Shown one piece after another: positions 9,242 through 64,000 of a DNA stretch of 64,000 nt; positions within the stretch are counted from its first letter, which is position 1; every line of letters begins with the position of its first letter. The stretch is from Blasia pusilla. Its lineage: Eukaryota. The stretch spans positions 38,068,001-38,132,000 of the forward strand of contig CM114271.1 in assembly GCA_050084515.1 (NCBI GenBank), written 5' to 3'. A model generated the notes under the pieces. That model was not told the DNA's origin and searched no databases. It was given only the letters and a program-made list of their open reading frames with translations. Made by a program: the position numbers and the translations under genes.

Positions 9242-9299
9242 CTCCCCGGACCACCACAACCATCGCCCTTCTGTCCAAAGATGTAATCTACGCGGGATT

Positions 9300-11510: not shown

Positions 11511-14500
11511 TATAACCAAATATTTTCAACGGTCCACTCTATTCTATTAAAGATTAGATTGTGCAATTTTTTTACTCTCTTTCTTTCATGTTTTTTCTTT
11601 TCTTGGTCTTCTCTTGATATTTATTTTATAATAAAGTGGATATATAATGAGAGGATTCTTTCAAATTTCTTTTTCTCTTAATTTGAAAAAAAGAAACGTT
11701 TTATTCCATTATGTTCTTTATACAAATTTAGTTTTTAGACTCATTATGGTATTTCGGCTATATTCGTATTAGAATTATGAAAACACATTTCAAATCCAAG
11801 AATCTTTAACCCAACTATATTCACAACTAAGACCCTACCTTCTCTAGGCATAATTTCTCTCTAGGGAGATTTAAATAAATGAAAGTATCTATTATTTTCA
11901 AACTGACCGTGTGGGGAAAAGGAGGGTTTTCACTTCATGTTGTTTTACACGTATGCCCAAAAAGTTTGGATACTCTCCAAAAATGGCACTTATATGAGTT
12001 TTGGTTGAGTTTCAACCAATGGGCTTTGAGGGGGCCATTCCACTTCTTTGGAATTTAAACTCTTCTCATATATCCATTTTATAATAAAATAAACCTCAAA
12101 AAAGGACAAAGAAAGGTAATAACATCTTAAAAGAGTCAAAAATGCATGAAAGAATGCAAAAAAGAAAATGGCAACTAGCCAACGTAAACACCGACTCAAC
12201 GAGCTACACGATTGATGGCATGAAACAAATCTGACAAGAACACGAGTGTTTGGTCAGACGTGAATGGACGATGAGACGAGTGACCCCCCACCACCTCCGC
12301 GTATCAATGCCAAGGCTTGTGCACGTTGTAAGGCCACTGAGATGCATTGCCGAAAATAAGTAATAACTATAGAGAGAGAAGGACTACGGGAAGGGCCAAG
12401 ATGATGATTCTCGAGGGAGTCGTGAGCACATGTTTCCAGGAAAGTATCAAAAGACACATATAAATGACCGGATACTTCCATTGCAAAAGGAATAAATCCA
12501 TCAGTCGCATGTCTCATAGCATAACTTAACTCCTTGATTCTTGCTACAGCTTCAGCCGCCAAACCTTTGGTATGTGTGGCTCGACACATCAAGTCAAAAC
12601 GTGTTGGATCAGCAACCACCACATCACCTAGTGTCCGGAATCCACCTCGAGATATAACAAGATCCACTCTCCGATGAAATGTTGCTTGTGTGGTTGAAGG
12701 TAGGACATGAAGTTGCTCTTGCCCAACGGTATATCCTACAGTATGAGCCATCGATGCTACCGTCTCTCTAATGATATCATGTATGGCCGTTTGTTTGCCA
12801 CCATGGGCATATCGCAGAATATGGATACCCTTGGCATCAATGAGATCCCTGCATACACAATTCGGCATACCTAACAGAAAAGGATGGGGAAGTCCAAGAC
12901 GTAATTACAAAGTTGTCGAGAATATACTTCGAGGAAAACGAAATGGAAGAATAAGAGGATTTGCAATAAGCCACGCCCCCGCTCCGATACCCGCACATGA
13001 ACGCAGACGAGCTCGATAAGCGTCAGAGGATGCCTCGGAGAGAATGCTGGAAAAGTTGATTTGATACAGATTCTCGGAGATATGCTCTTGAAGTCGATCA
13101 AGCCCTTCCGTAATCAATTGACTGAAAGGGGGTAGAATTGCTTATGTAGCAAAAGGAAGAAGAGCTCTTGCAGATCTCAGTTGTTGTTGAAATAACAAGT
13201 CCTCCTCCTCTACATGGGCGATATGATCCATCAAGATAGGTGTATCTCCTTGGAGAAACCTTGAAGCCATAATCGTTGCTACCAACACCCAACTCCCCAA
13301 AAAGGCTACGGGAGGAGATGTGACAATGGAGGACAGTCCCGCCCCTCCAAAAGAAATAGGCAAGATAGCTTGTTTTGAAGCAAAGACACCATCGTCTCCC
13401 TCAAAGGTATTCGGGCCAAGAAGTTGACCAAAAGTTGCCAAGATAGAAGCGTCAAAGAGGCCAACCGATGTAAGAACCTTGAAGTGAGAGGACAAGCGCG
13501 AAGAAGGTACAAAGGACGTCGTAGAAAACATTGGGAGAGAATCCCATAAGCCATTTGGGGATTCCCTAGATGAGGTAACAAATGAAGCCATTCCACGTCT
13601 TTCAAAAGGGCCTCATCTAAGAACTTTGAGACATAGTCGATGAAGCCAATAGGGACCCCAAGAACCCTAACCCCTTCAATGTAGATGGGAAAATCAAGAG
13701 TAGGTGGGATGAATGTTGAGGGAAGGCATGAAGGAGACCATACTCCACATTTACTAGGTTGGACTTTAAAGTTTAAGAAAGAGAGTTGCTCCACGAAATG
13801 GGTATAAGCAGGAACCACTTCAGAAGGAGGACTTATAATGTGAGTGTCATCAGCAATAGAAGGGAAAAGACAAGATGGAAATGCTTGCATTGATGCTCAA
13901 AGGGCACGAAAATGGGCAATGGCAAAGAGTGGGCCACCCATGGGATCACTTTGACGTGTGCCACAAGCCGATTGTAGAATACTATATTCACGGGAAGTAG
14001 CATGATGGGAATAGATAATGGGCATATCATAGGCATAGAAGGAGCGAACAAATGGAATGAGGATCGCAAGTTGTCCTCCTGCACAACATAACTCCTCAAA
14101 GATGGCTGCACGAGAAACTGAATTGAATGCGTTAGCCACATCCACTTGAATTTCTACCCAATCTGGATGAATATCAGGTGTGGAGTGAATCCCATGCACC
14201 GCATCTTCACAACCTCCAAGATTTGCCACTCCAAATTGATGAGGAAATAAGTGGGCACTAAAGTGAGGACGAAATTGCAAGCATAGGGATTGACTAACCA
14301 AGCGGTATAAAACCTCTCCAATAACCAAAGGACGCACACCTGAAGGAGGTTTATCCATAGCCAACAAACGACAAGCCCTTAAGAGCCTAGAGATAGAGAA
14401 TGGGAGACGACATGCCGCCATATGTGCATACACCTTATATAAAAAGACAAAGCCACTTGTTGAATCTGTCGAGATAAAGCAATCACAGAGATGCTCAAAA

Positions 14501-14549
14501 ACCATTCCTGATAGCCCGTTTGCTAATAAGCGATGAGTATGTAGAAAAG

Positions 14550-14859
14550 TGTAGAAAACTCTTAAAGAAGCATAACTGGTGAGAAACGGCTCACACTCTC
14601 ACACCACCATGGAGAACAAAATTTGCAATGAGAGGATAAGTGGAGGTTGGTTCCCTTCTCAATTATATAGGATATGTACAAGCAACCCTAATCCTAACCT
14701 TAACCATAATCTCGAGTTAGACTAACTGTGATTAACTAATCCTAATTAAGATAATCGTGCTTAACTGACTAACCAAGATTAAGCTTCCTTACTTCGTGTG
14801 AGTACCAAATATAGTAGTTCAAGTGTCTCATGAGCTTGAATGTAACTCAATCTTCAATA
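14550..14859 (-). repeat. Copia 3' LTR (310 bp)
   Basis: About 90% identical by eye to 18786-19097 and adjacent to the PPT. Confidence 0.93.
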
Positions 14860-17800
14860 TCCCCCCTCAATCTCATACCGATATCTCTAACGCCTAAATC
14901 ATTTCTAAACATCTCAAACTTATCTCTCGACAATGCCTTTGTAAAGATGTCAACAATGTGCTGATCTGTACATATATTCACAAGATTTATTTCTCCTGCA
15001 AGCACTTTCTCTCTGATAAAATGATAGTGCATCTGAATATGCTTTGTACGAGCATGAAACATAGAGTTATTAGCAAGCTTGATGCTACTAATATTATCTG
15101 CATATATTACACTAGGTCATAAGTTACTAACACCAATCTCAACAAGTAATCAATGAAGCCACACCGCCTCACATGCTGCATTGGTTGCTCCTCTGTACTC
15201 ATCCTCTGTTGAAGATAAAGCAACTATGGTTGCTTCTTTGAAGCCCAACTTATAACTGCGCTTCCCAAAGTAAATGAATAACCAGATGTGGAGTGTCGAT
15301 CAGACACGATTCTTGCCAAATCAACATATGTGAATCCCTGTACTTGAAAACTCGGAGAAGTTTCAAATTGAAGCATGAATTGAATAGAGAATTTCACATA
15401 CCGCATAATCCTCATCACAACATCAAGGTGAGTTTTCAAGGTGCTTGCATAAACTGGCTCACTAGGCCAACAACATAACTCAAATATGGTCTGGTTATAG
15501 TTAGATAGATCAAACTTCCAACCATGCGCCTATACATATTAGAATCTACAAGAAACTCTCCTTCAGCCACTCTTAGCTTCATACTCTGGTCCAACGGTGT
15601 AGATATTGGCTTACAAGCTGTCATACCATATTTTGAAAGCATATGAAGAGCATATTGTCATTGTAGTAATCACATGCTCTCTCCAACCTTGATAAACTCA
15701 ATACCAAGAAAGTACTTGAGTTATCTCAAGTCCTTCATATCAAATTCTGCTTGTAACTTAAGCTTCATTTGTTGTACCATTTCTTCAGTACTCCCAATAA
15801 TCAGGAGATCGTCAACATACAACACAATGAGAACCATATGATCTTGTCCTCTCAAGATATATAACAAGGAGTTAGAATCACATATCCTAAAACCCAACTC
15901 TTGTAGGACGTATGTAATCTTGCCATACCAAGCTCTTAGAGCTTGTTTGAGCCCGTATAAAGCTTTCTTCAACTTGCATACGCGAAATGGAAACTTGGGA
16001 TGCTCGTATCCAGGTGGTTGAGTCATATATATCTCCTCGTATAGATCTCCATTAAAGAAGCCATTCTTGATATCCATGTGATATAATCTCCACTTCTTAC
16101 TTATTGCAACTGCAACCACTGTTATAGTAGTCGCCATCTTTGCAACAGGGCTAACTATTTCCTCATAATTGATACCATATTGTTGTGCATAGCCCTTATC
16201 CACTAATCTCGCTTTGTATCTGTTAATTGTACCATCTTGATTGCGCTTGATTTTGTAAATCCATTTGCAACCAATAGCTTCCTTGCCAAAAGATATGTCA
16301 ACCAGCTCCCATGTTTGTTAATGTCTTAATGTAGCAAGCTCTTCCTCCATAGCTTCAATCTATTCGACTTTACTTACAACTTCTTCAAAATAACTCGGCT
16401 CTTGTTCTTGAAGGGTAGTCATCATATATGCATGATGTGTCGTAAGGAAACCTTCATTTATGAATCTGTGAACTAGATGTGTAACTCTACTTGATCTACG
16501 AAGTTTTTGTTTAGAAGTAGATGCCTCTTACACCTTACTTGAGCTCTGACTAGTATCAACAGATTGCATACATACTCTTTCTGTCCATAGACTCACACAT
16601 TTAATTGATGAATCTAGGACCTCTCCTAATCCTGCACTAGTACTTGGGGAAGTTGAAGACAATGTCTGTTGGTTTACCGTCATATTCTTCCCCTTAACAC
16701 ATGAGTTTCAAGGTGGAATAGGCTCAGATGGAGCATACCATGACTTTAACTCATCAAAGACAATATCGCGACTAATAATAAGCTGCCTAGAGGATGGAAT
16801 GTAGCACTTATACCCCTTAGTTCCATCAACATAGTTAATGAAGATACATCTTTCAAACTTGGGGTCTAATTTCTAACGTCTCTCAAAAGGAATATGAGCA
16901 TAACAAATACAGCCAAATACTTTCAAGAAGGAGAAATCAGGTTTACTTCCTATGAAGACTTTGAATGGTGTTTTATCATGAACTCTTGTTATTGGAGTTC
17001 GGTTGATTAAGAAGACTACACATGCTACAGCCTCCACCCAATACACCTTAGGCATGTTCTTCTCATTCAGCATAGCTCGTGTCGCTTCAGCAATATGTTG
17101 ATTCTTCCTCTCAGCCATTCCATTTTATTGTGGAATGTAGCGGCAAGTCACTTGATGTTGGATGTCATTCTGACGTAAATAGTCATCAAACTCTGTTGAA
17201 AGATACTCTCCTCCTCCATCACAACGCAATTTCAAAATGTGTTCTCCAGTCTGCTTCTCTACTAGAACTCTGAATGTTTGGAATATTGAAAATATCTCTA
17301 ACTTGGCTTTCAGAAAGTATATCCATATATAGCTAGAGAAGTCATCAATAAATGAAACAAAGTACTTGAAACCACTAAGGCTACGTTGTGATGTTGTCCA
17401 CACATCACTGTGGATCAACTCCAATATCCTGGATGCTCTTCTACTTTGCTTTGGAAAAGAAAATCTAGCTTGTTTTCCAAATTGGCAAGCAGGACATACC
17501 TCTAACGTAGCAGGACTCGCTAATTTTGGGAGTCCTATTACTATATTAAATGATGAAAGACTATGTAATCTTTGAAGATTCATATGTCCAATTCTTTTAT
17601 GCTACATATTTAGATTTGTGACTTGTTGGCCGGTTTGACCCTACATTGTTGTTTGAATCTCTAGCAGAGAAACATCTAATTTGAACATTCTGTCAGATCT
17701 AGTTCCTTTGGCTATCGTAGTCTGGTCATCCATTGTTTGAATGAAACAACCATCTGCGTTAAACTTCACTTGATAATCCTATTCTACTATCTGTCCTACA

Positions 17801-38746: not shown

Positions 38747-41700
38747 CTAATTATTAAGAAGCTGTCGGAGAACGTATTGCAAAATGCCTCCGTGCTCAAA
38801 GTAAGTGAGCTCCACCTGTAAGACCAGACAAAGTTTGAGTTATGTTACTGCATAGGACAAATCTCTGGAGTTCTGCCCCATTAAACAACTACTAAAACAC
38901 GGTACCAGATAAACACAGGGAACTAGCAACATAGTACTTGCTTTGACGCACTTGTAAGCAAAGAGTTCTCGACATTACCTCAGTGTCAAAACGCAGGGTG
39001 CAAGTGAATTCCTTGCCGTTGTCTGTTGTGACTACCACGTCTTGACCCGGCTTAATGTCCCTCACATTGGTAGGAAGGTCGATGGTGTACTTCTCGTAAC
39101 CAGTGAGTCCCAGGGTTTCAGCATCTTCTCCTTTCTTGAAGCAGAGGGGAATAACACCCATACCCACAAGATTGCTCCTGTGAATACGCTCAAAACTCTT
39201 GGAAATAACAGCCTTCACACCCTGGTTGCATGAAATGTAAGATCAAGTCAAATTCCCTGCCACGGTATATTTTTCCAAATAAAACCTATATTATCACAAG
39301 AAAACTAAATGCACATGCTGCCAATGCACTCAGCTGCAAAGCCACCATTTGTAGCTTTAAACTCTAATAGCTGCTGGGGGCAAAGAAAATGGAAGGTAAA
39401 AAGTGCATTATTTGCACAAACTCACTTGCAAGTACGGGCCCTTTGCAGCCCAATCACGAGAGCTTCCACTGCCATACTCTGCACCTGCAAGAATGATGGT
39501 TTCGTGACCTTCCTCCATGTATTTCTGCACAACAATTACAGATGTCACAGCGACAGGAAATTGTTAGCAGATAACCCTTCGCATTGGCCCATATTCTCAT
39601 CCACCGCTGACCCTACCAAACCACTTGCTCTCCACTGATTACTCTTAACATAGAATCCTCAGAATAATTCTGATGAAACCAGCCCTTCAGTTCAATTCAT
39701 TTTCAGGTACACACACCCTGCAGGGGCAAGGCAGACAAAACAAAAATAACACCCGAGACCCCAGAAAGGCCCGGCAATGATATGAACCAAGTACAAACAT
39801 TAGACATACCTTTGCTGCCTCATAGATGGGCAGTTTCTCCTTGCTTGGAACATGGATAGTATTTGGTCCGACTTCACCCTTTAAAAACTTGTTCACAATC
39901 CGAATGTTAGCAAAGGTTCCTCGGGCCATGATCTCATCATTACCCCTACGACTTCCATAAGAATTGAAGTCCTTGCGCTCAACTCCACGTGACATCAAAT
40001 ACTTTGCAGCTGGGCTATCCTTGCTGATGTTACCAGCAGGAGAAATGTGGTCAGTGGTGATACTATCACCAAAATTGAGGAGGCAGTAAGCGTCCTTAAC
40101 ACCATGTCCACCTGGAGGATCCTTGGTCATTGTCTTGAAGAAGGGAGGTTCACGGACATAGGTCGACTCTTCATCCCATGCATACAGATCACCCTCAGGT
40201 GAAGGTAGTTTGTTCCACATTGCGTTTCCCTTGGTAATGGTCTCATATGTTGCCCTGAACATTTCTGGTAGAACTGATTCCTTCTCGATCTGAAACAAAC
40301 CACAAACAGTGAGCTGACCCATTGTCAACACATGACCCTCTCAGCAGAACTTAGCCAAATGTCCCACACAGCACTTTCAAACCAATCAAAACATGATCTG
40401 ACAGTAAAACTTCACCTGTGCGATATCCTCAGAGGTGGGCCAGATATCTCTGAGGAAGACTGGTTTTCCATCCTTTCCGGTGCCGAGGGGTTCCTTCTCA
40501 AAATCAATATCCACCTATCAACATGTTCAAATCAGCATCATGAGTTACTTCATCACCAAGTTCCTGGTAACACTGCTAGTAAGTACACATTACCTGACAC
40601 AAAGGTGTTAGTCTTCCCTTGCCTAGTATGACGTCTTTGCAAATACTCTGGACCAATGATAGAACATCCATAGTTCGATAAAATGGATGATGGTTCTTCT
40701 TTTAAGAAATACTAGATTGTAGCCCACATCAATTTCAACAAATTGAACTTATCTCAAGTATCAATTAAAGCTTTCTAGCAAGGACATGGTGGTAATCTCA
40801 TTAACAGGTAATCTCATAACCTTACCGTTCCAGCTAAAGCATACGCCACTACAAGGGGAGGAGATGCCAGGTAGTTTGCACGTGTCAAAGGATGCACACG
40901 ACCCTCGAAGTTACGATTTCCAGAAAGAACTGCAGAAGCAACGATATCTGTACAACAAGACGAGGAAATACATCAACGACAGTCTACTGAATAAGTGACG
41001 ACTTGCAGGAAAATACATTTTCATGCTCCCACTTGTCATTTCCACTTCCAGATGTACTTCTGCACGGATTCAACAAGGAGTTGCCGGTCTTTCGACGCTA
41101 AGGTTATGTGTCTAGAATTACACAATCCACAATGTCTGGACGATCAGTTCTCCAAACCTGAAAAAATTATTGACATTACCATTTTCAGCGATAGCAGTAG
41201 AGACAGCTTCATCAAGTTCACCAGAATTTCCAATACATGTGGTACACCCATAACCAACCAGACTGAATCCCTGCTTGTCCAGGTACTTGTCCAAACCACT
41301 GCAAGTCCCATCACAGCCAGCAACAAGTAAGATTCATGTGAGCAAGGCAAATCTAACAAGGTCCTCTTCATTCAGATCTTGTGAAGGCTTGCCCATGAGA
41401 CCTGTCACAACTTTTGATCAATTAAGGCTCTAAGCCCAAGAATCATTCTGAATTTTTAGGAAGGTCCTGCCATTTTATTGCGTCACTGTCATTTTAAAAG
41501 GCAGTATCTGTGCCTAAGCCAGCGGGAGAGGAGAGGCTTTTGCATACTCTAGATGACGAGGTCCATTGCTTCAAGATAGAGGGGAGACTATATACAAACA
41601 CTCGGATCTTCCCACAAGATGAAAGAAAGAGATCACCATCTGTACCTTTCTTTCAAGTATTTTGTGACTACTCCTGAACCAGGAGCCAGACTGGTCTTGA

Positions 41701-52462: not shown

Positions 52463-53116
52463 TGTCACATCTTTTGCAGCGAGTCAATGAGTATCCATAG
52501 ATTGCCTTTGGTGAGGTTGGAGGACATACTCAAGAGGTTGAGGATGAACTACTAAGAACTAGGGTAACCTGAGAGAACATATATCCCCTTATTTTGGGCT
52601 CATTTGGAGTCATATTGAGAAACTTATTATTTTAAGTAAGTTCCTATTGTAAGTATACTTGCCTTTCTATTTGGGAAAGTGGTCTTCAACCTACTATTAC
52701 AAGTCAAGAGCCAAGGAAGTGAAGTGTGTGGATAAGTGACCAAGGAGTATACCCTAAGAGAGTAGGCTTGAGAGCTCGTTCCCTCTTAGTTGAACCTCCT
52801 TTCATGAGGTGGCGGAGCTTTGGTCCTCCTTGCATTGTAAGTAACCCATGCCTCTCATTATGAGAGTGGATTTGGTTAGACATGAGAGAGATAATTAATG
52901 AATAGATTTATAGTCCATGGGGACCCCACAAGGCCATGAGAGAGAGACAAAGAAAGAAAGAAAGAAAGAAAGAAACACAAAGAATGAGTTTTGTGGTGAC
53001 TTGATTTACAAAGATGATCGTTTATGTGTTTAGATGCCATGAGTAAGTATAGATCTTGTGTTTATGTGTTTGGCAATAGCGATTATTTTTGTGTAGTAAT
53101 TTGTAAACGCACAATA
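52463..53116 (+). mobile_element. Solo LTR (~654 bp), diverged relative of the LTR at 55036-55679
   Basis: TGTCACATC...CGCACAATA aligns along its length to the reverse complement of 55036-55679 (TGTCACGTC...CGCACCACA). Flanks GGGA/AGGA may be a 4-bp TSD. Confidence 0.8.
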
Positions 53117-54329
53117 AGGATGAAAGATTTTAGGAAAGATCTAGACAAAGTTGGCATAATTCATTTGGTGATCTATGGATTGTTATGTCAAGGTCGTTCA
53201 TTGGATGGTTAAGAACTTAGTTTGCAAGATACGAGGGAGAGCATGTTTTGAAGATGTTGCAAGTATTACGACACTTGCATTAAAATCAAACATATAATGT
53301 ATATTTTAGGGAACATGTTGTTGGGTAACAATTGTGCATAAGTTAGTATGAACTTATACCAAACAAGATCCTAATTAGGCTCAATAATATATTTAGACAA
53401 GATGAGTATTGGATTACACATACAAAGTCCATGATCATGGTGGACAAACCTCCTACCATCATAGGTGCTAAGGCAAGCTTATAATAGAGTTCAAAGAGCA
53501 TTGCACTCGAGAATGGATGTTATCTTAAATCTAGGGCGATAATCTTAGATTGTGACTCATGAGGATAGACTATTGTCATCTTTAGGCAATATGGTGGGGG
53601 AGTTGAGGGTAACACTATCCATATTGATGAGATTTTTGGAATCCCTTGCCTTTCCTTCAGGAGGTTCGTACATGATCTGAGATGAATAGGTACAAGGATT
53701 GGAGGAGCATACTTGTGATGAGCAAGAGTGAGCAATGGGTTTTATATCGGTTTAACCATAATATTGAGTGTTAGGGCCAAATCTCATGCACATAAGGAAT
53801 TGGTGACTATAGAGGTTCGCCCGTTTTTCTGCACCCAAATCTTTTGGGCGCAAAATGGCCCAATGACCTCCATCTATTTATGATTGGAGGTAGTTATTAG
53901 GGACCGGTACATTTTTTTGCATTATCCATTAGTAGATTACTTTGGACGCACAAATGGAGGTCGCGGGAACCTCTACTCGTGTCTATGGGATCGCGCTCTT
54001 AGAGTCATCATGGAGACAAGTGTTAGGTTAATTGATAAACTTGAACTATCTAACATAGATAGTCAATCTAGGATTTGCTAAGAAATAATGAATCTAAGCA
54101 ACATCCATTTTATCATGTCTACCTATTAGTCCATTTCATACAAAGATTGTTGAGGAATTTGTTGAGTTTTTTGTTTCTTTTTTTTTAATGGGGGGGAATT
54201 CAAGGAGATATATATGCTCATGAAAACCATGGACTATCCTTCAAGAAGAGTGTGTGAATTTGGATAGTGCAGAATATGGTCATTTTTCACATATAGAGCA
54301 TGATGTTATGATGTCTTCCATAAAGGTGA

Positions 54330-54770
54330 CTAGGCTTATTGAGTGGTAATCAGAGATTGTGCCTCCTTCTTTGAATGAGGTTATGATGGAGACTTGAGAG
54401 CATGTGGTAGGTATGAAGTTGAGAAGAGGAGAGAGATGAAAATAAAGATCTCCTCAAGAGTAGGTATAGCATATTGATGTGACCTCGTGTGTTGGTTGAA
54501 AGGACAATCATCTCCACATATCTTCCTAGCCTTTTGATTGCCATACATATCCTTCTTTACAAACATAGCTCTAATAGACTCATACTCTCTAAGTGATAAC
54601 TCTGCCAATCATGCCCCCACAAGCCTTGACTTCCATTTTTAATCAATGCTCTCTCCATGCCACAATATAAAAGTGTTATTCTAAAAAATAGCATATTACT
54701 AGCCAAATTTCTTCGTATACGAGGAACCTTTAAAGTGCCCAAATCCCTCATACTAGCCGTCTCAAGACTC
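54330..54770 (-). pseudogene. Older degenerate gypsy RT fragment of the same family
   Basis: MRDLGTLKVP, MERALI and EYESIRAMFVKKDMYGN...YAIPTLEEIF correspond to MEDLGTLKGP, MERALI and EYASATVMPTKKDVHGN...YAMPTPEEIF at ~58660-58965. Confidence 0.8.
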
Positions 54771-55035
54771 ATGCCATTGTTGTACGCATACACATTGCTA
54801 CACAATATACATCGTTGTCACCGAATACACACACAAACACGCACGATCCCATGCTAACTCATGACATCCAAACAACCAAAATATCTCCAATTAAATCAAG
54901 ATCCAATCTCTCACACACCACCATAGTTATCACATATGTGCACTCTCACATGTCTCTCTCAATGTCAAACCAAACCCACTCTCCTAATAAGAAGCTTGGG
55001 TTACACTCACAAGGCAAGGGACCATAACTCCGCCA

Positions 55036-55679
55036 TGTGGTGCGCATACACATCGCTACATAACATACATCGTTGTCACCGAACATACACACAAACACGC
55101 ACGATCCCATGCTAACTCATGGCATCCAAACAATGAGACAAGAAGTACTAAAATATCTCCAATTAAAGTAAGATCCAATCTCTCTCTACACCATCTCACA
55201 CCATAACTCTCAAAGGTGTGCACTCGCTCTCATGTCAAACCAAACCCACTCTCCTAATGAGAGGCTTGGATTACACTCACAAGGCAAGGGACCATAGCTC
55301 CGCCGCCTCATGCCAAGAGGTTCAACAAAGAAAGAATGAGCTCTTAAGCTCTCTCTCTCCTTGAGGTATACTCCTCCCCTCTCCCAAGCTCTCTCCATGG
55401 TAACATATTCTCCCAAGTCACATCCTTGGTTCTCGACCTGATGTAAGAGGTCAAGGGCCACTTACCAAAAATAGAAAGTCGATCATATACTCAAAATGGT
55501 ACTTATCTAAAATAGTAAGTTCATCAATATGGCTCCAAATGAGCCGAAACGAAGGGGAAACCTGCTCTCTCAGGTTTCCCAGGGCCTCAACAAGTCATCC
55601 TCGACCTATTGAGCGTGTCCTCCACTACTCACGAAGGCGTTCTACTAGATCTCACCGATCTATCTTAAAAGACGTGACA
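55036..55679 (-). repeat. Full LTR (644 bp, TG...CA) flanked by two partial LTR copies (54778-55035 and 55682-55808)
   Basis: Three copies of tgt(t/g/c)gt(a/g)cgcatacacat...atatctc(c/t)a start at 54778, 55036 and 55682. Confidence 0.8.
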
Positions 55680-55995
55680 ACTGTCGTGCGCATACACATC
55701 GCTACACAACATACATTACTGTCACCGAACACACACACAAACACGCATGATCCCATGCTAACTCATGACATCCAAACAACGAGACAAGAAGTACTAAAAT
55801 ATCTCTAATCGCCCCCCTAGCTAGTGGTTAGGTCCATCTAACTCCAAAAAGGCATCTTTCCCTACCTACCATCACATACATCTCTCAGACGCTAAGAGCA
55901 AGAAGGCCGGATGCTCATGTGGCCCCATCATTAGTCACCTTCCTATCATCCATGTCATAGAAAAAGTAGGAATCGAAACCTACCTAGTATCTCCT

Positions 55996-57260
55996 CTATG
56001 TATATCTGGGACATATCCATCGTCTCCGAGGAACCCTAGTAAGAGGTGATGTCAGACATGCCATATGCCAACCTCTCGAACATCCATCACAGACTAGCAT
56101 CGTGGCCGCACCACCGGCAGAACCACACAACATACAACGCAAGCATGTAGAAACTATTGCTAAGCTCGGATCTACTGTACCATCAATGTTAGAAAGATGA
56201 CATGGTGCACAATTGTGCACATGGTCCTTCCATACCATACCATCGTATCCCTCCAGCAAGAGAACACCAGATGACAAAACGTCACGCACTCTCAAGATAG
56301 TGCATCCTACAGTCACATCCAACGTCGTTAGTAGCGTCTGTTACAAGTAGACATAATCTCCCTGATGAAACCTCCTGATAGTTGGTCGATAACCACCACC
56401 CCGAATAGTTGCATACCTCAATGTACCCCGATGTTGTGCAATTGCCAAGTTCTTGAACGCCATGGGCATCACTCTCCGAAACAACTCAGCCCTCTAAGAA
56501 CATGCTCACATCCATACATCTGGGTCATCAAGGTTCAGTACCTCACCAACATCTCGACCAATGGCCGTAAGTAAATCTGGCTCTCGGCCATAAAGTAGCA
56601 AGTACGGTGAAAAAGACGTTAAGGATGTCTGCATGCTGAATCTGTATCCCATCGCCAAAAAGGGCAATTGGAGGTCCCAATCTCCTAGGTGACCTCTCTG
56701 CAAGCCATACTTGCGTAAATCCCTCTTCACCATATACACAACTCTCTTCGCTAATCCATCCGCCTCGGGATGATCTCGCGAAGTTGTGCGATGGTCGATC
56801 AGCGCCTGATCACACAAGGCCTCGAACTCACCACGAAACTCGTTACCCTGATATGTCAATACCTCAACCGGTGCGCCATAATGACGCAATACTCTGTCAA
56901 GGAAGGCATAAGCTACTCCCTCACTCGCTTTGTCAGGAAATGCAACCAACTCGATCCACTTCGAGAAGTGCTCGATCATCACCAACGCATAACGATTGAG
57001 ACGCTCCGTCAAAGGCAAAGATCCTACAAAATCCAAACTCCATCTATACCCTAAGCCCATGATTGGTAATGGATGCAACTGTGGTGTCGGAGCATTGAAC
57101 GATGCTCGGACCCGATCACACACCATGCACCTTGCAGCAAGCTGCTGAACGTCAGTCTGCATGCCTCGCCACCAATGATGAATTTGGAGCAAGCTGTACG
57201 TCCGCTTCACCCCAAATTGACCCAACTCCTTGTGGGCATGCTACACTAGTCGTGCTCTAT
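55996..57260 (-). pseudogene. Gypsy integrase with C-terminal PHD finger
   Basis: H..LGQFG...HWW.GM..DV...CMVC zinc-binding region; decayed DDE (WSLDF, VLTYQG, GLAKR); then CMLC..MLVCDGCSRGWHMACLTSPLTRVPRRRWICPRY (56136-55999). Confidence 0.9.
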
Positions 57261-57558
57261 GCAAAGGATGAGGCACTACGCGTATTCTGCCATCCTCCCA
57301 AACCCTCAAAACATGTGTCCCCTCCCAATGGAACCGTCTCGCCCGCTGTAGAATCCGATCCCCCTCTCTAGCACCCATTGTGCTCGTAATGTTGCCACTC
57401 CGAAGGTACTCCAAGACTACTCCATCATCATGAATATCTCGGCCATCCGTCGTCTCCTCACTGGCCTCGGGATCCAAGGACTCTCCACTAGACCGCGCCA
57501 TCAAAGTCTCCACACTCTGGCTCTCCATATCCAACATGCCTAAATAGGCTTACGCGTG

Positions 57559-58990
57559 TCATCCTGGCACTGACTCCTCATCACTCTCTCCATGCCATCG
57601 AGCTCTAGTTGCATCTCGCTGACTCAGGCATGGGTTACGACTCAACCCATCTGCATCCTGGTTGAGCGTCCCAGGTCTATGTACCACTTGAAAATCATAC
57701 TCCTGCAACAACAGAGCCCATCTCGCAAGCTTCCCTGTAAGCTTGTCAGACTCCATCAACCACTTCAGTGGTTGCTGATCAGTGATGATGGTAAAGGGGT
57801 TGCCGAATAAGTAACACCTGAAATACGTGACAGCCCACACTACAACCAAGCACTCACCCTCATACGAGCTATACTTCACCTCTATAGCGTTGTTTGAGCG
57901 GCTAGCGTTAGCCACCATGAACTCTCTACCCTCATCATCATGCTGGGTGAGCACCGCTCCAAGCCCCATCATGCTCCAATCTGTGTGCAACTGGAAAGGA
58001 CGCCCCCTGATCGGTCTCTTCAAGATGGGCGTGAACGTCAACCTGTCCTTGAGCAACTTAAATGCTTGCTCCTGCTCATCCCCCCAGTGCCACTCGTGGT
58101 CCACCTTGGTCAGCAAGGTCAACGGCTTTGCAATCAAACTGAATCCCTTGACGTACCACCGATAGAAGTTTGCCAATCCCATGAATGCGCGAACATGACT
58201 CACATCTGTAGGGCGGGAATGCGTGAGATAGCCTCAACCTTTGTCTGCTAAACACCATTGCCCCCTGGTATATCGTTTGATCTAAATACTCAATCTGGTC
58301 GTAGAAGAACTTGCACTTGCCTGGATATAACTTCAGCGCATGTAATTGCAATCACAAAACACCTCCTCTAAATGTCGCTCATGCTCCTAAACCGTGGCAC
58401 TAAAGACTACGATGTCATCAATATAATACCTAGCAAAATCCAAACCAGCCAAGATCCTATCCATGACCCTCTAAAACTCAAACGGGGCGTTCTTTAACCC
58501 AAATGGTAAGAGCCGCCATTGGTACAAACAATCCTTCCCGTGAGGATTGATGCCCCAAAATTCCGTCTTCTGCATGTCCTCCAATCTGATAGGGAGCTGA
58601 TGGTATCCGGCTCGCAAATCCAATGAATTGAAAACCTTTGCATAACCAATCGTATCAAAGATCTCCTCAGGGGTGGGCATGGCATACCTATCGGATTTTG
58701 TCTGCCGATTGATAGGTCGGTAATCCCTACACATCCGCCTATCCGTCCAGTTGCCATGCACATCCTTCTTGGTGGGCATGACAGTGGCAGATGCATACTC
58801 CCCATGCGAGATCTCCACTAGTATTGCTCCAACCAAGTTCTGGATCCTACTCTGAATCAGAGCCCTCTCCATATCACTGTACGTGTAGGGTTTTCAGAAG
58901 ATCGGTGTATCACTCGACAACTCAATGCAGACCCCGGTCCCTTCAGCGTACCCAAATCCTCCATGCTAAACGCAAAGCAACTCCTATAAC
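57559..58990 (-). pseudogene. Gypsy reverse transcriptase and RNase H
   Basis: ORFs 58471-58872, 58076-58351 and 57559-58203 carry the canonical motifs, with stops and frameshifts. Confidence 0.93.
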
Positions 58991-59413
58991 TCATGAGGAA
59001 CTGATATATTCGGCGCCGCTCTCCTCTTGTCAACTTAAGGCCCATATCTGGCTCCCAAGTCTCCATCGTGACTACTATAGGACTCTCCGACGCGGATATT
59101 GGTGGTTGCTATGGTGCAACCTTGTCTCAAAAAACAACATTTGACCGCTCTCCTGCAGCCAACTACAAACTCTGATCTCCTCCACATGCAGTGCCCGGAA
59201 CCACGCTCGATGCTGTGGCTATCATCACCTGGCATACCTGCAAAACATCCCAAGAAGTCCAAGGGTGTCTCTCTCGATCTCCCTGGTGTGTCGATCTCCT
59301 CGGGTCTTGCCCCCAACCACTACCTCCACCATCTCGGTAGGCATGGAGCTCACCAACGCAACCGATGTGATCTGTGGCGATCTCATCCGACCTTGCTCAG
59401 CCACTCCCAAGCT

Positions 59414-60356
59414 GAAGATCCATATCAAATAGTTCAGGTCCATCGCCTGACCCAAGAGATGGCATCGTGATGCCTCTGATACTGACGGGACTGCCGTCAC
59501 TCCTGGGGGAAATCCCATCGCCCACTCTTTCTCGTTGGCGTTGGGCTCCACCAACCTCTGAACCTGGTCATCCCAAACCAAGCCAGGACCGGCCACCTTG
59601 TATGCATAAGAAGCGGGAAAACTCACAAACGTGGGAAAGGTTTCCCGCCGCCTGCCTACCCTGTTGACCACAGTCAACGGTGGTCGATCATCGTGCCTCA
59701 CTACATGTGGTCGACGACCAGGATCCAGAATGGAATCCACTAACAAATGGGAGGGGCGCTCCACTCTCGCATTCGCCCTCCGTAAGACTACCTGGGGCAC
59801 CAAGTTGGTCCACCATAGACGCGGCGATGGGCTCTAGAACCTACACTCGCCGCATCCAAGAACATTGCTGGGCTGATCCAGGCACGCACCTGATGAGCAC
59901 TTGTCACCACCCGTGACCTAGAGTCTCCTAAGATGGGCACATTCTCCAGAATGTAGGCTGGAGAACGAGATTAGTGCTCCTGCAACTGCCGTAAGACCCT
60001 CAACATCTCCCAAAACAACCTAAATCGAGTATCAGCCAACCCGCTGCCTCATCCAACACTCCATTGGCCCTGACATGGCCAACCAGAAATGACCAAATCA
60101 ATGGTCCCTACGTGCTCTAAGTCCTGCGCCCCCGACAACGAAATATATCCCTCGGTAGGGAACTCTGGTATCCCTGTACCGCGGACGCAGACAATAAGTC
60201 GGGAAAACGTAGGCGTAATTGCGCCATATGTCGTAGTGAGATGCGCCTCGCAACATCATCACTCTCCATATATAGGTACTGTTGTACTCACACTCTTACC
60301 TGCAAAACAACAACTAACCCATTGCTAATCCCTCCAAAGAGATCTAACACTTGAAT
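59414..60356 (-). pseudogene. C5-cytosine DNA methyltransferase domain (DNMT3/DRM-like) embedded in gypsy pol
   Basis: Manual translation: motif I IQVLDLFGGISNG (60356-60318); II YLYMESDDVAR; IV IDLVISGWPCQG..GLADTRFRLF (60102-60067 onward); VI YILENV (59955-59938); VIII LDAASVGSRAHR(P)RLWWTNL (~59860-59801); IX EKEWAMGFPPGVT; X RCHLLGQAMDLNYLIWIF. Three stops and two frameshifts. Confidence 0.92.
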
Positions 60357-60554
60357 ACCCTCCTCCGGGGTACACCACACAAAAGGTGTGGTATCCAAGA
60401 TTATCATCGTAGCACTCCCTGCTACCTCAGGTTCCTTAGACCCGTCATGCTACGGTGCAAACGCCTCACTCCACACGGTTTGCACGTGCTCATCTACCAA
60501 TTGTCGAAGCTCCTCAGTTGAGCCCCACAGCGGCACCTCTCCTCCACGGAATGA

Positions 60555-61295
60555 TTAGGCTATCATAACACTCCTCTCCATAGAAATGTTAGGAACGGGA
60601 GTATCCTCTGCATGGACATGTCCCTCAATCAAATCACTAGGCCAAGTGATGGCACTGCTAAATGCTGCTAAGGTCGCCATCTCTCTTGGCCGTTGCTCGA
60701 TCACTGAACATGTGAATTGAACGGGTAATGAGCTAAGGCGCCCATCACTTGACTGCCATCCTCGTCTGTAGGACGCCGACTCTTCCCAGTAATCCAGGAA
60801 AAACCCCATCGGGTATAACACTGCTCCACCAACCAAGACGTCGTAGGACTCTGCATTAGTCACTATCGCCTTCGCTCACACCATGGACTCATCTGTAGGA
60901 TGTCCCGGGCGAATCCTCACCACGACCTCCTGTCGGGTAATATACTATGTGGTACTCGCTCCACCCAAGGATTTCTGTATCCGGAATAGACAATGCTCCA
61001 CATCGGCTCTCGTCAAGCCCAATCCTTTGAATGACGCTTTCCCCAACATCAGGGATTGGGCTCCTGAATCCAACAAGACGCGTTGCGGACTAAAAGCTCT
61101 ACCTCCGGGACTCACCAAGTGGAAGACCTCTCCTCGGTTATCTAGCAACACAATACCAGGAGAAGCCATGGCACGCTCTATCGCGGGTCTAGCGGGCATC
61201 TCCGCCATCCTAGCAGCCGCAGCCTCCCATGAATCTGACATGGACGGCCCGAGCATCCGCTCCAAGGGCAGTTCCATCACCTCCTCTGCAATCAC
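60555..61295 (-). pseudogene. Gypsy aspartic protease region
   Basis: FSPQRVLLDSGAQSLMLG followed by YDVLVGGAVL. Confidence 0.8.
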
Positions 61296-61639
61296 CTCTC
61301 AACGTGATGTAAGAACTCCAACTCCACACTCACATAGCGTAGCAGCCAACTGAAAAGCCTTGGCGGGCGTACCCCCCAACGTCATATCATCGGAAGCAAA
61401 AAATAGAAGAGCGCGGTACACAATGGTGGCCTCCCCCAACAACGTGCTCGACACATGCCCCTCTTAAGCATCAACAATAGGAGTCGTCGCACTCGCTTCT
61501 CCCATCACCCTCCGTGCGTGCACACCAACAACGTCACCAACTCTCCAGGAACTCTGATCAGGACCCATCGATGGGGTCCTCATCGCCTCAGACAACGTGA
61601 AAGACTGGGGAAGCCTAGTCTGTTTCCTGCTTCCCCTCA

Positions 61640-63150
61640 CTATGGATCCAACTCTGTGGCTGCTCCACGCGTCACAACTATGGCGGCCTCCATCTGGGCA
61701 ACCCCGCACATCCAACCAAGATCCTCCATATCTCTGGCTGCTCCATATGATATCGATGCCACGGATTCGGCATCGGGTAATCTCAATGCCATAGAGGCAA
61801 TCTGCTTCTGTAGTTGATGTATTCGAGCACCCATTCTAGCCTTACGCCTGGTATCTCCCTCGATGCGTCTAGGTGGTAGGACTCTACCTCCTCCACGGGC
61901 AGCTCCACCACCCTCTCGGGCAACTCCAGCTCCTCGTCCCCCAACGGGACCACCTGGTGCAAGATCTCTAGGCCCACCCGGACCGACTACTCGCTCTGGT
62001 GCCCTCTCTGGCCCTCGGTCCGAACGTAACTCAGGATGTAAACTGAAACACCTGGCGCGTGTATGACCATACCTCTGACAATAGTCACACTGATAACCTC
62101 CTGGTGCAGCACCATCTCCTCGTCCATGCTGAGGCACATGTCCATGACCCTAACGAGTGCAATCGCGCTGATGATGGGCTCCACCACATGACCAACAAGT
62201 AATAGTAGGCGGTTGCTGTTGAGCCGCATATGAAGGCGAAGGTCTCTGTGGCACTGCCTCTCGGTATCCTCCCTGAGCTCGTGGGGCCACAATCGACCTA
62301 TCTCGAAGTCCATGTTGCTGCACAGATAGTGCAGACAATCGTGACTCCTCTCGCCCAGAACCCATGGTGGCTATGCTCTCCTCCGCCATGTTGCACTCAA
62401 TGTTCTCGGCGGTCCTGAAAACATCTCTCAACGTAGGGGAGGTGTTCAAAAGAAGTACCCCCTCCCGCACCCGTGTCCGCAGGGTCCGGTCCAGCATCGC
62501 GTACCATGACTGGATAGCTTGAGCCTCTGTCACCCCCTAGTGACGTTGATCAATCGGCGCAAGCGAGTGTAAGCCTCAAGCAAACTCTCACCCGGGCGCC
62601 TCTGGAAGTCGTGGATGCTCCGCAACTTCTCCGTTCGTACCCCTTGGTGGCTCGCCCTCAACTCAGCAAAGAACTCAACCACGGGGTTGAACCTGGGATG
62701 AACCCGACTAGACGGTGCAACTGCTCCAGTGCGAGTGACCCGTCCTAAAATATCACTAGTGGAAGAGGAAGTAGCCTCTCTTGACTCCTCCTCTTCATTT
62801 GGGAATGGCTCCGTCCATGACACATAGTGTGGGTCGTAGTAGATTCGCCATGCCTCAATCTCCAGGGCATATCTGTGGGAGAACTCATGGTAATTGTCCA
62901 TGGGTGCCCCCTCTAAATGCTGGAACATACCATTCCATGGTGTAAACGAGTTGAACTCTCTAGAGTTCGTGGCATGCTATGAGTCGCACCAACTCCTAAA
63001 CTCTGCTATGAAATCGTGCCTTCTGCACCTGAAAACCTACGCGGTCTTCTACCCGATCGTCCATCTTGTACACCCAACTGGTAGGACCTCTCACAATGTG
63101 TGGAGATGTGCTCACAAACTCCTCTACATGCTCCCCCTCGTCTGAAGACG
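61640..63150 (-). pseudogene. Gypsy gag with two CCHC zinc knuckles
   Basis: FQRRPGESLLEAYTRLRRL (major-homology-like), CWSCGGAHHQRDC, CDYCQRYGHTRARC and an RG-rich tail. Confidence 0.8.
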
Positions 63151-64000
63151 ACACAAAAGGAGATCGAGGTGGTCTCTCACGTGGAGACCCTCGAAACCTC
63201 GCACCACTCCGGGTAAATCCTCAAGAGCTACTCTTAGGTCCATTACTTTGCCTCTCAAAATCCTAAAAGGACGTCGTGATCGCCCTTGTGCCCCTCTCAC
63301 ACAATCACTCTCAACCTCACGAGTAATCCCTCGATCACTCATCCCAAACATACGGCATTCGATCTACACTCTCCATCCTTGAGATGTGGAACGTGCGGCA
63401 ACAAGCGGCGCGGTGCGGCACATTGACCAGGCTATCATCTCATCGACAAACTACCCTCAACTCCGGACATCCCACACAGGTCTATGTCCCCTAAACCACA
63501 TACATAAATGACGATCTCAGCATCCACACACCCAATATCCCCAAATAAACTACCCAAATCCCAGAATCCCTCACACGTGCAGGGTAAAGGATCAGAATGG
63601 GTAACCTAAACACATGTCGATATCGCTCCTCAAAAACTGCAAATCTCGACCCCAACTCGGTCGTGGAGACAACTCCTCCAATCAGCAAGTCATACTCCTC
63701 TCGTACTGACGCTGCTTAAAACTCTTTGATGGACAGTGCGATTCCAGCAGAACGGTGCGGCGTTGCAGGCGGCACAGAACGGTTACGAACGGCACGACCC
63801 TCGATGATGGGATGCAACACTCGTCGGCATACCCTCCTCAATCAACAATAAACCCACACTCTGCTCCACAATGACGATGCGGCTCCACGATCGAGACAGT
63901 GCGGTGCGGCCACGAGCGGCATGACGCGGCAATCGGCGGAGCGTTGTGGCTACGGGCGGCACGGCATGGTACTCGATCGTCGTCGAGCGGCTACCAATCA

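Follow-up and report, generated by a model that had tools for sequence, protein, structure and literature searches.

Retrotransposons that carry their own chromatin tools show mobile DNA adapting to host silencing, and several such combinations are already in print. KnitGypsy-Dnmt3 of Klebsormidium nitens is a Gypsy element whose Pol polyprotein contains an intron-less DNMT3-like domain (de Mendoza et al. 2018, PMC5890265) and whose repeats follow the DIRS-like layout A-coding-B-A-B (Fig. 4 legend, PMC5890265). In chromoviruses, which are Gypsy elements too, the C-terminus of the integrase bears a chromodomain (PMC6673714; bioRxiv 10.64898/2026.05.21.726589), and the EpiLTRs and DAM-LTRs join a chromodomain reader to Dam and a DNMT4-related DNA methyltransferase (DNMT) (bioRxiv 10.64898/2026.05.21.726589). 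PHD fingers are known from CR1-like LINEs, REM1, Gypsy-7a_cRei and Chlamys Penelope-like elements and were called 'a common accessory domain' in Chlamydomonas elements (PMC6673714, PMC8557442, PMC9940879). Here we describe a Ty3/Gypsy long terminal repeat (LTR) retrotransposon in a stretch of 64,000 nt from the bryophyte Blasia pusilla (the whole stretch is called the window). Its integrase ends in a PHD finger and its Pol also contains a DNMT3-like methyltransferase. The window copy is an ordinary dead insertion, and the lineage with this putative reader and DNMT3-like writer spans green algae to bryophytes, including the tractable model Marchantia.

KnitGypsy-Dnmt3 and the present family have in common a DNMT3-like domain inside a Gypsy Pol; the best solved match of this domain in the relative P0035 is DNMT3A (E 1.3e-9), followed by DNMT3B and 3C. 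The published repeat layout is matched as well, in related loci and in part in the window (see below), while the host is a charophyte alga in one case and a bryophyte in the other. The word PHD has no occurrence in the main text of PMC5890265, although a PHD might still appear in its Fig. 4c or supplements. Searches with the window open reading frame (ORF), the DNMT, the algal region and transcriptomes returned no K. nitens relative, and KnitGypsy is compared here by its description.

With the chromoviruses, as far as the cited passages describe them, the family shares a small histone-reader domain after the integrase C-terminal domain and a proposed role in directing integration. The reader here is a PHD finger instead of a chromodomain, and the expected ligand is the H3 N-terminus instead of methylated H3K9; PF00385 (chromodomain) has no match in the window ORF, which is matched by PHD models only. 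One relative holds both reader types in tandem: P0138 reads RT-RH-DNMT-INT-PHD(1923-1967)-Chromo(1993-2043), with reverse transcriptase (RT), RNase H (RH) and integrase (INT), that is, two histone-reader domains after one integrase, plus a DNMT. The EpiLTRs likewise unite DNA methyltransferase domains and a chromatin reader within a single LTR-retrotransposon Pol, but they and the DAM-LTRs pair a chromodomain with Dam and a DNMT4-related enzyme, whereas a PHD finger is paired with a DNMT3-like domain here; the main text of bioRxiv 10.64898/2026.05.21.726589 contains no PHD finger. In Gypsy-7a_cRei the PHD is listed between RNase H and integrase, in contrast to its place after the integrase here, and the passages on PHD-bearing transposons in PMC6673714, PMC8557442 and PMC9940879 hold no pairing of PHD with DNMT. 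An earlier sequence-only reading of this DNA had supposed that PHD-bearing Gypsy integrases may already be described in some non-seed plants; the literature searches lent this no support and turned up such integrases for Chlamydomonas elements only. In the main texts of the literature, with figures and supplements outside the search, we found no C-terminal integrase PHD that defines a DNMT-bearing Gypsy clade, no such clade in bryophytes or chlorophytes and no shift of DNMT position.

The PHD finger and the element around it lie on the minus strand of the window. The ORF at 56340..55996 encodes 114 aa and ends in ...CLRCMLCGSAGGAATMLVCDGCSRGWHMACLTSPLTRVPRRRWICPRYT directly before the stop codon. 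Pfam PF00628 (PHD) matches ORF residues 69-112, corresponding to window positions 56136-56005, with an E value of 2.6e-10 and 40.6 bits, above the curated cut-off of 24 bits; three NSD-type PHD models match as well, more weakly than PF00628. The best PDB phmmer match has an E value of 1.7e-13. Zinc ligands 1-7 are intact (C4HC2; 56005..56136, minus strand; Pfam PF00628, PDB phmmer and AlphaFold model plus Foldseek). By direct codon reading, the codon for ligand 8 at 56002..56004 is TAT (Tyr), where relatives have Cys, so that the window finger lacks the full Cys4-His-Cys3 set of eight ligands. A Thr codon follows at 56001-55999, and the TAG stop codon of pol stands at 55996..55998, two codons past ligand 8. 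Intact relatives read W.CPRC at this place and then run for 1-7 residues to the end. Hence, the C4HC3 pattern, its coordinates and the change of the last Cys to Tyr were exact in the sequence-only reading, and the Pfam search that it had proposed gave a clear match. Judged by these residues, the family is a member of the PHD fingers and the window copy is a broken member.

One frame running from 58956 to 55996 carries RT, RNase H, integrase, an SH3-like domain and the PHD finger, as established by tblastn and translation. The finger thus forms the C-terminus of the integrase itself rather than a neighbouring exon; the possibility that the PHD lies in another frame than the integrase was ruled out by tblastn and straight translation, which gave one frame with stops. 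The integrase, with its H2C2 zinc domain and rve core, occupies 56506..57240 in the same frame as the PHD (minus strand; Pfam PF17921 4.3e-10, PF00665 1.6e-09). It is followed by the SH3-like beta domain at 56221..56319 (minus strand; AlphaFold model, conserved with relatives) and then a linker to the PHD. Four strands form this domain in the model (ORF residues 8-40), with a moderate pLDDT of 56-70. The PHD thus stands at the extreme C-terminus of a Gypsy integrase, after the SH3-like domain; its placement at the integrase C-terminus, where chromoviruses have their chromodomain, was correctly recognized from the letters. The Pol order protease-RT-RNase H-integrase, with rve core and H2C2 zinc domain, is that of Ty3/Gypsy elements, and the element is therefore classified, by its domains, as a minus-strand Ty3/Gypsy LTR retrotransposon with a Pol of protease, DNMT3-like domain, RT, RNase H, integrase, SH3-like domain and PHD.

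The finger is a feature of the family. A protein search with the 114-aa ORF yielded 33 matches of 46-76% identity, 31 of them with PF00628 and 10 also with an rve core; named sources among them were Marchantia polymorpha (6), Calypogeia fissa (3) and Sphagnum fallax (1). Metagenome contigs were scanned with peptide patterns of the integrase C-terminus, the SH3-like domain and the PHD. At least 600 stretches matched, and at least 525 related stretches were confirmed by tblastn. The locus counts cover the best 80 of the at least 525 confirmed stretches, and these 80 loci represent 65 non-redundant groups. All 80 kept loci had the same PHD module in the same place, and in 72 of them a stop followed 1-6 residues past ligand 8. 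The eight zinc ligand positions were all covered in 78 loci and intact in 49 of these (39 of 63 copies after removal of duplicates). Ligand 8 was Cys in 66 loci, Tyr in 7, another residue in 5 and uncovered in 2; the change seen in the window therefore recurs. The zinc ligands, W91 and P104 are conserved in the family, and D85, G106 and W108 are kept at 90% or more. Because the Pfam and PDB phmmer E values, the overlay of the AlphaFold model (see below) and the same module in every kept locus agree, the PHD pattern is assessed as being beyond chance and the finger as a family feature rather than a chance pattern. The sequence-only reading was to fall if sister elements lacked the PHD; they carry it.

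Sequence comparison further indicates that the PHD is kept by selection in a living family. The median pairwise dN/dS (NG86) of the PHD core was 0.38 in 49 copies and 289 pairs, all below 1. The SH3-like part had a median of 0.26, and the integrase core, in 10 copies and 27 pairs, one of 0.23; these values come from stop-free, gap-free copies only and are somewhat biased downward. Three RNA runs of the same organism contributed 231, 211 and 203 reads on 54700-64000, strongly biased to one (sense) orientation. Nearly all of them were 95-99% alike and therefore stem from related copies; the depth over the PHD was 2 or less, and the reads are unassignable to any single copy. Of the 6054 reads of a DNA run, 268 matched at 99% or more, and the PHD bins were near single-copy depth, with no close living copy of the PHD stretch seen among the sampled DNA reads. 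These data fit a low level of sense transcription from members of the family, with the window locus holding a unique, old copy.

The metagenome patterns contained no DNMT sequence and thus permitted an unbiased test of co-occurrence in the 33 non-redundant loci with at least 4600 nt upstream of the PHD. The DNMT was present in 23 of them in the order PR-DNMT-RT-RH-INT-PHD (PR, protease) and in 2 further loci with an internal deletion that removed the RT, and it was absent from 8. All 8 loci without DNMT are truncated or deleted, 4 of them starting within RNase H or integrase, and no untruncated copy without DNMT was seen among the 33. Hence, a DNMT3-like domain occurred in 25 of 25 non-redundant copies that retain the DNMT stretch, and the joint occurrence of PHD and DNMT across the family that the sequence-only reading had proposed to check was borne out. 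Candidates for sisters without DNMT were rejected one by one: L023 and L042/L052 have internal deletions fusing the long repeat to the RT, L025 is cut just upstream of the RT and L051 inside it. L001 (7800-10350), L002 and L003 retain protease, DNMT, integrase C-terminus and PHD without RT, RNase H and most of the integrase; they were rejected as DNMT-PHD fusions since they are stop-ridden deletion derivatives. The breakpoints of L001 differ from those of L002 and L003, which are one locus in two assemblies, 99.4% identical with flanks included.

Relatives were found in liverworts, mosses, Coleochaete and chlorophytes, among them P0030, a complete RT-RH-INT-PHD ORF from a Coleochaete scutata transcriptome. 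In P0040 and P0041, two long proteins of algal appearance, the DNMT is complete and stands between RNase H and integrase; both also have the SH3-PHD module and an extra tail. A search with this type of region gave 130 proteins, with PF00628 in 109 of 120 among the matches listed; Haematococcus, Scenedesmus, Monoraphidium and Chlamydomonas eustigma are the named chlorophyte sources. By local profiles, 84 of 118 new proteins have the architecture RT-DNMT-INT-PHD and 24 of 118 DNMT-INT-PHD, proportions that are biased upward because the queries behind them held both DNMT and PHD. A 1188-position profile from RT to PHD matched 341198 proteins at E 0.001 or better, which represent Gypsy Pol in general and are not PHD-specific; only the 150 sequences returned were used, and this query, too, held both domains.

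Integrase trees were built without the PHD columns. In the FastTree analysis of 233 rows, all 187 rows with a C-terminal PHD fell into one clade (SH-like support 99). Outside it lie 31 Gypsy integrases that lack a PHD, as well as three elements in which a PHD precedes the integrase. The corresponding branch had an SH-aLRT of 99 in a quick IQ-TREE analysis (LG+G4) of 61 rows, a set from which four long-branch rows were dropped and truncated C-termini excluded and in which large groups were subsampled at random. One supported clade for all 187 rows points to one origin of the C-terminal PHD. Within it, the window groups with P0020 and P0024 (support 99), the algal arrangement forms one sub-clade (support 89) and the bryophyte-type arrangement appears in other sub-clades. 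The place of the DNMT in Pol differs by branch, being RNase H-DNMT-integrase in chlorophytes and protease-DNMT-RT in bryophytes. Two proteins, P0186 and P0195, have a PHD without a detectable DNMT and are nested among DNMT-bearing rows of the integrase tree, which suggests loss of the DNMT. The three elements whose PHD precedes the integrase are the Gypsy Pol proteins P0264, P0276 and P0290, in which it follows RNase H; they lie outside the C-terminal-PHD clade, and P0264 additionally has a Dam-type adenine methyltransferase near its N-terminus (PF05869, 3.2e-10).

The finger resembles PHDs of the type that binds the unmodified H3 tail. Its best PDB phmmer matches (E 1.7e-13 to about 1e-6) comprise the second fingers of KMT2D/KMT2C, KAT6A/B (MOZ) and DPF2/3, PHD1 of KDM5A/B/D and Lid, and fingers of CHD4/5, PHF12, PHF21A (BHC80), ATXR5, WSTF, BAZ2A/B, UHRF1/2 and AIRE; no BPTF, ING or TAF3 finger was among the best 60 PDB matches. 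The AlphaFold model of the 114-aa ORF has a mean pLDDT of 64.6, with 66-84 in the PHD part. This part adopts the PHD fold and overlays BAZ2A-H3K4me0, DPF2/3, MOZ, KDM5B, ATXR5-H3, UHRF1-H3 and BHC80 at 0.8-1.7 Å root-mean-square deviation (rmsd) over 44-49 columns. Like the BAZ2A, KDM5B PHD1, BHC80/PHF21A, UHRF1, ATXR5 and MOZ/DPF fingers, to which it is 32-49% identical, it has the C4HC3 spacing, the pattern CD.C...[aromatic]H..CL.PP...P.G.W.CP.C and no Trp two residues before the His. Unlike these solved H3-tail PHDs, it sits on an integrase and not on a host chromatin protein, and most of the acids with which they contact K4 and R2 are missing.

A Trp two residues before the zinc-binding His is the mark of aromatic-cage PHDs that read H3K4me3. 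The window reads S-R-G-W-H, and at least 90% of relatives likewise have Gly at this position. Because there is no Trp at this position, as the sequence-only reading had rightly observed, an H3K4me3 cage is unlikely. In H3-bound fingers, the H3 peptide aligns along the strand that precedes Cys3, and its Ala1 is capped by the P.G.W loop. The family keeps M-L-V before Cys3, Asp after Cys3, G-W-H and P.G.W.CP.C; thus, it has preserved both the P-x-G-x-W loop and the strand leading to Cys3, and the nearest solved relatives are of the unmodified-H3-reading kind. This likeness supports the assignment to a candidate unmodified-H3-tail-type PHD.

From these resemblances we infer histone binding, the mark read and an effect on integration. 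The reading that we favour, with a probability of roughly 0.55 and by analogy to other integrase-borne readers, is that the integrase PHD would be a tether to the H3 tail that biases integration. PHD fingers without a methyl-lysine cage typically favour tails unmethylated at K4. The finger would bind the N-terminal tail of histone H3 on nucleosomes like such cage-less fingers, and through this binding the integrase, with its cDNA, would be guided to chromatin in a particular state, in the way that chromoviruses use their chromodomain. The co-inherited DNMT may act, as a separate activity, on the element's own DNA or its surroundings.

Several observations weigh against this proposal. Readers of H3K4me0 contact K4 and R2 with acidic residues, some of which lie at the N-terminal side of the finger, and a second acid pinches H3R2 in UHRF1 and MOZ. 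In the family, the Asp after Cys3 is conserved (90% or more), but the next acid position reads Ser, and no conserved acidic residue before Cys1 was found in the family alignment. The mark read may therefore not be K4me0, or the ligand may not be H3 at all. The likeness to readers of unmethylated H3 of the UHRF1/KDM5-PHD1 type, noticed from the sequence, stood, with BAZ2A, BHC80 and MOZ/DPF-PHD2 also among the nearest solved relatives; the acids that would go with it are mostly missing. With a mean pLDDT of only 64.6 for the 114-residue model, the Foldseek E values stay weak (5e-4 to 1e-2). The downward bias of the dN/dS values and the thin, unassignable RNA coverage given above count on the same side. 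Moreover, chlorophyte relatives (P0033, P0041, P0250-P0258, P0269 and others) continue for 100-370 residues past the PHD, which may there be part of a larger module. P0041 and P0033 share about 28% likeness in their tails, and that of P0033 holds DPWCGTGS, resembling an S-adenosylmethionine-binding motif; Pfam gave nothing firm on the algal tails after the PHD, with a faint Tudor-like match in P0252 only.

That the PHD in the window itself is inactive, the decayed tail of a dead insertion, is almost certain, and it moves the interest to the family. The frame from RT to PHD contains 12 internal stop codons, 3 of them between integrase core and PHD, and the gag-protease-DNMT part has at least three frame changes. 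The second catalytic Asp of the integrase is Tyr (LTYQGNEF, compared with LTDQG.EF in relatives), as is zinc ligand 8. Because of the 12 stops, the frame-broken DNMT and these two Tyr replacements, the window copy is regarded, from its sequence, as dead, a relic. The few DNA reads at 99% or more and the near single-copy depth of the PHD bins agree with an inert copy. This assessment is compatible with the tethering of integrase to the H3 tail, which concerns the family.

A bolder extension, to which we give low odds, would see in this old green-plant Gypsy lineage, defined from chlorophytes over Coleochaete to liverworts and mosses by its integrase-PHD fusion, a self-contained epigenetic kit, in which the integrase PHD leads the intasome to H3K4-unmethylated nucleosomes and the DNMT3-like enzyme, co-inherited even as it moved within Pol, methylates the new copy; the algal form might then be a single DNMT-integrase-PHD polypeptide. 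If true, the element would choose and write its own chromatin state.

Somewhat less probable still is that the PHD serves the element's DNMT in the manner of an ADD domain, reading the H3 tail to place or switch on the methyltransferase so that both would form one unit. The ADD of DNMT3A/3L is a composite of a GATA-like and a PHD-like domain and adjoins the catalytic domain within the same polypeptide chain. Common to both would be the association of a DNMT3-type catalytic domain with a reader of the H3K4me0 type, and the sequence-only reading had drawn this parallel. Its first half stood: PHD and DNMT3-like domain are co-inherited, in 25/25 non-redundant bryophyte copies retaining the DNMT stretch and in the 84 plus 24 architectures among the 118 further proteins, the best solved match of the DNMT is DNMT3A, and the DNMT directly before the integrase in chlorophytes makes a DNMT-IN-PHD protein conceivable. 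Against the second half, the counts from queries with both domains are biased, and the finger is a single C4HC3 PHD, not an ADD, located about 950 residues from the DNMT, beyond RT, RNase H and integrase in the window's branch. Retroelement Pol is cut into separate enzymes. In addition, the DNMT took two places in Pol while the PHD stayed on the integrase, and in P0186 and P0195 no DNMT is detectable next to the PHD-bearing integrase. Because of the plain PHD, the three enzymes in between and the DNMT that moved while the PHD stayed, the analogy to the DNMT3 ADD appears weak.

A non-histone ligand (nucleic acid, a factor of chromatin or of nuclear import, or a host protein whose free N-terminus resembles that of H3), with the PHD as a general aid to the integrase that selects no chromatin state, would agree with the mostly missing acidic K4me0/R2 contacts, with the UHRF1 PHD, a near match also solved with the non-histone protein PAF15 (6iiw), and with an SH3-like plus PHD arrangement that is only loosely like Tudor-PHD pairs (rmsd 12-14 Å), but it is improbable given that chromatin proteins supply all of the top 60 PHD matches by sequence, that ligand-bound structural neighbours are mostly H3-tail complexes and that the P-x-G-x-W loop and the strand before Cys3 are conserved.

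A lineage that joins an integrase-borne reader to a DNMT3-like writer would make testable the purpose of a transposon-borne DNMT and the question whether readers other than chromodomains steer integration. The family also matters for annotation, since many gene models that are labelled 'PHD-type domain' or 'DNA methylase' in the genomes of Marchantia, Calypogeia and Sphagnum are element fragments and not host chromatin genes. The gene models P0003, P0004, P0008, P0011, P0013, P0018, P0023, P0034, P0037, P0038 and P0042 are Pol pieces of this retrotransposon family; the public names of these Marchantia, Calypogeia and Sphagnum models are 'PHD-type domain', 'hypothetical protein' and 'DNA (cytosine-5-)-methyltransferase'.

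The remaining parts of the element follow upstream of the integrase, all on the minus strand. RNase H is located at 57559..58233 (Pfam PF17917, 6.9e-33) and the RT, with YIDD present but broken by stops, at 58076..58956 (Pfam PF00078 5e-08; tblastn with P0030; translation). The DNMT3-like C5 cytosine methyltransferase lies between protease and RT at 59225..60255 (tblastn), with frame changes and stops. In tblastn, this remnant shows 54-59% identity with P0035 and P0037, two relatives that are Pfam-positive, and GWPCQG and ENVP are still legible in its ORFs; the window's own DNMT pieces gave no Pfam score at E 0.01 or better, and the DNMT call rests on the relatives. The protease region at 60555..61298 is 48-61% identical to P0034, P0035 and P0037 (blastp, tblastn) and is assigned solely through this likeness, with no Pfam match. 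The gag region with CCHC-like knuckles spans 61640..62976 (ORFs; tblastn to P0037 and P0035). The 5' end of the element is outside the window.

Behind the stop codon lie repeat B1 (55682..55809, minus strand, 128 nt), 187 nt past the stop, and repeat B2 (55036..55163, minus strand), 92% identical to B1. Between them lies the presumed 3' long repeat A2 (55164..55681, minus strand), assigned by its position and the layout of locus L027; DNA likeness of the window element to related loci stops at 55675. A third, weaker B copy (77%) is found at 54778-54905, and a 73-nt unit is present twice. The repeats at 54778-55809 fit the family's B-A-B tail with one additional, partial A-B unit. L027 has the layout A1 ... 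B1-A2-B2, that is, A-coding-B-A-B, and B1 and B2 were seen in 15 of the 48 non-redundant loci with enough downstream sequence. This is the layout described for KnitGypsy-Dnmt3 in the cited legend, and the window carries its B1-A2-B2 part, while A1 falls outside. In related loci, long repeats of 300-350 nt stand about 8.7 kb apart; the 5' partner of the window's repeat lies outside the window.

Judged by its ORFs, the element sits in a mixed territory of genes and transposons, with a G+C content of 32-53% along the window. Minus-strand ORFs at 4009-9298, 39687-40340 and 13897-16317 correspond to host-like genes and further retroelement remains. Among the host-like ORFs, MASE1 stands with a response-regulator receiver, which probably makes up a histidine kinase of the MASE1 type, and an aconitase C-terminal domain is encoded as well; Copia RVT_2 and RVT_1 are among the other retroelement remains. 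Just downstream of the element there is a small nest of decayed copies with DNMT-like and RT-like fragments at 53093-53743 (plus strand) and 54444-54623 (minus strand). The DNMT-like fragment is 42% identical to the DNMT of the window element over 106 aa (E 5.8e-20), and the RT-like fragment, on the opposite strand to it, reaches 52% over 60 aa.

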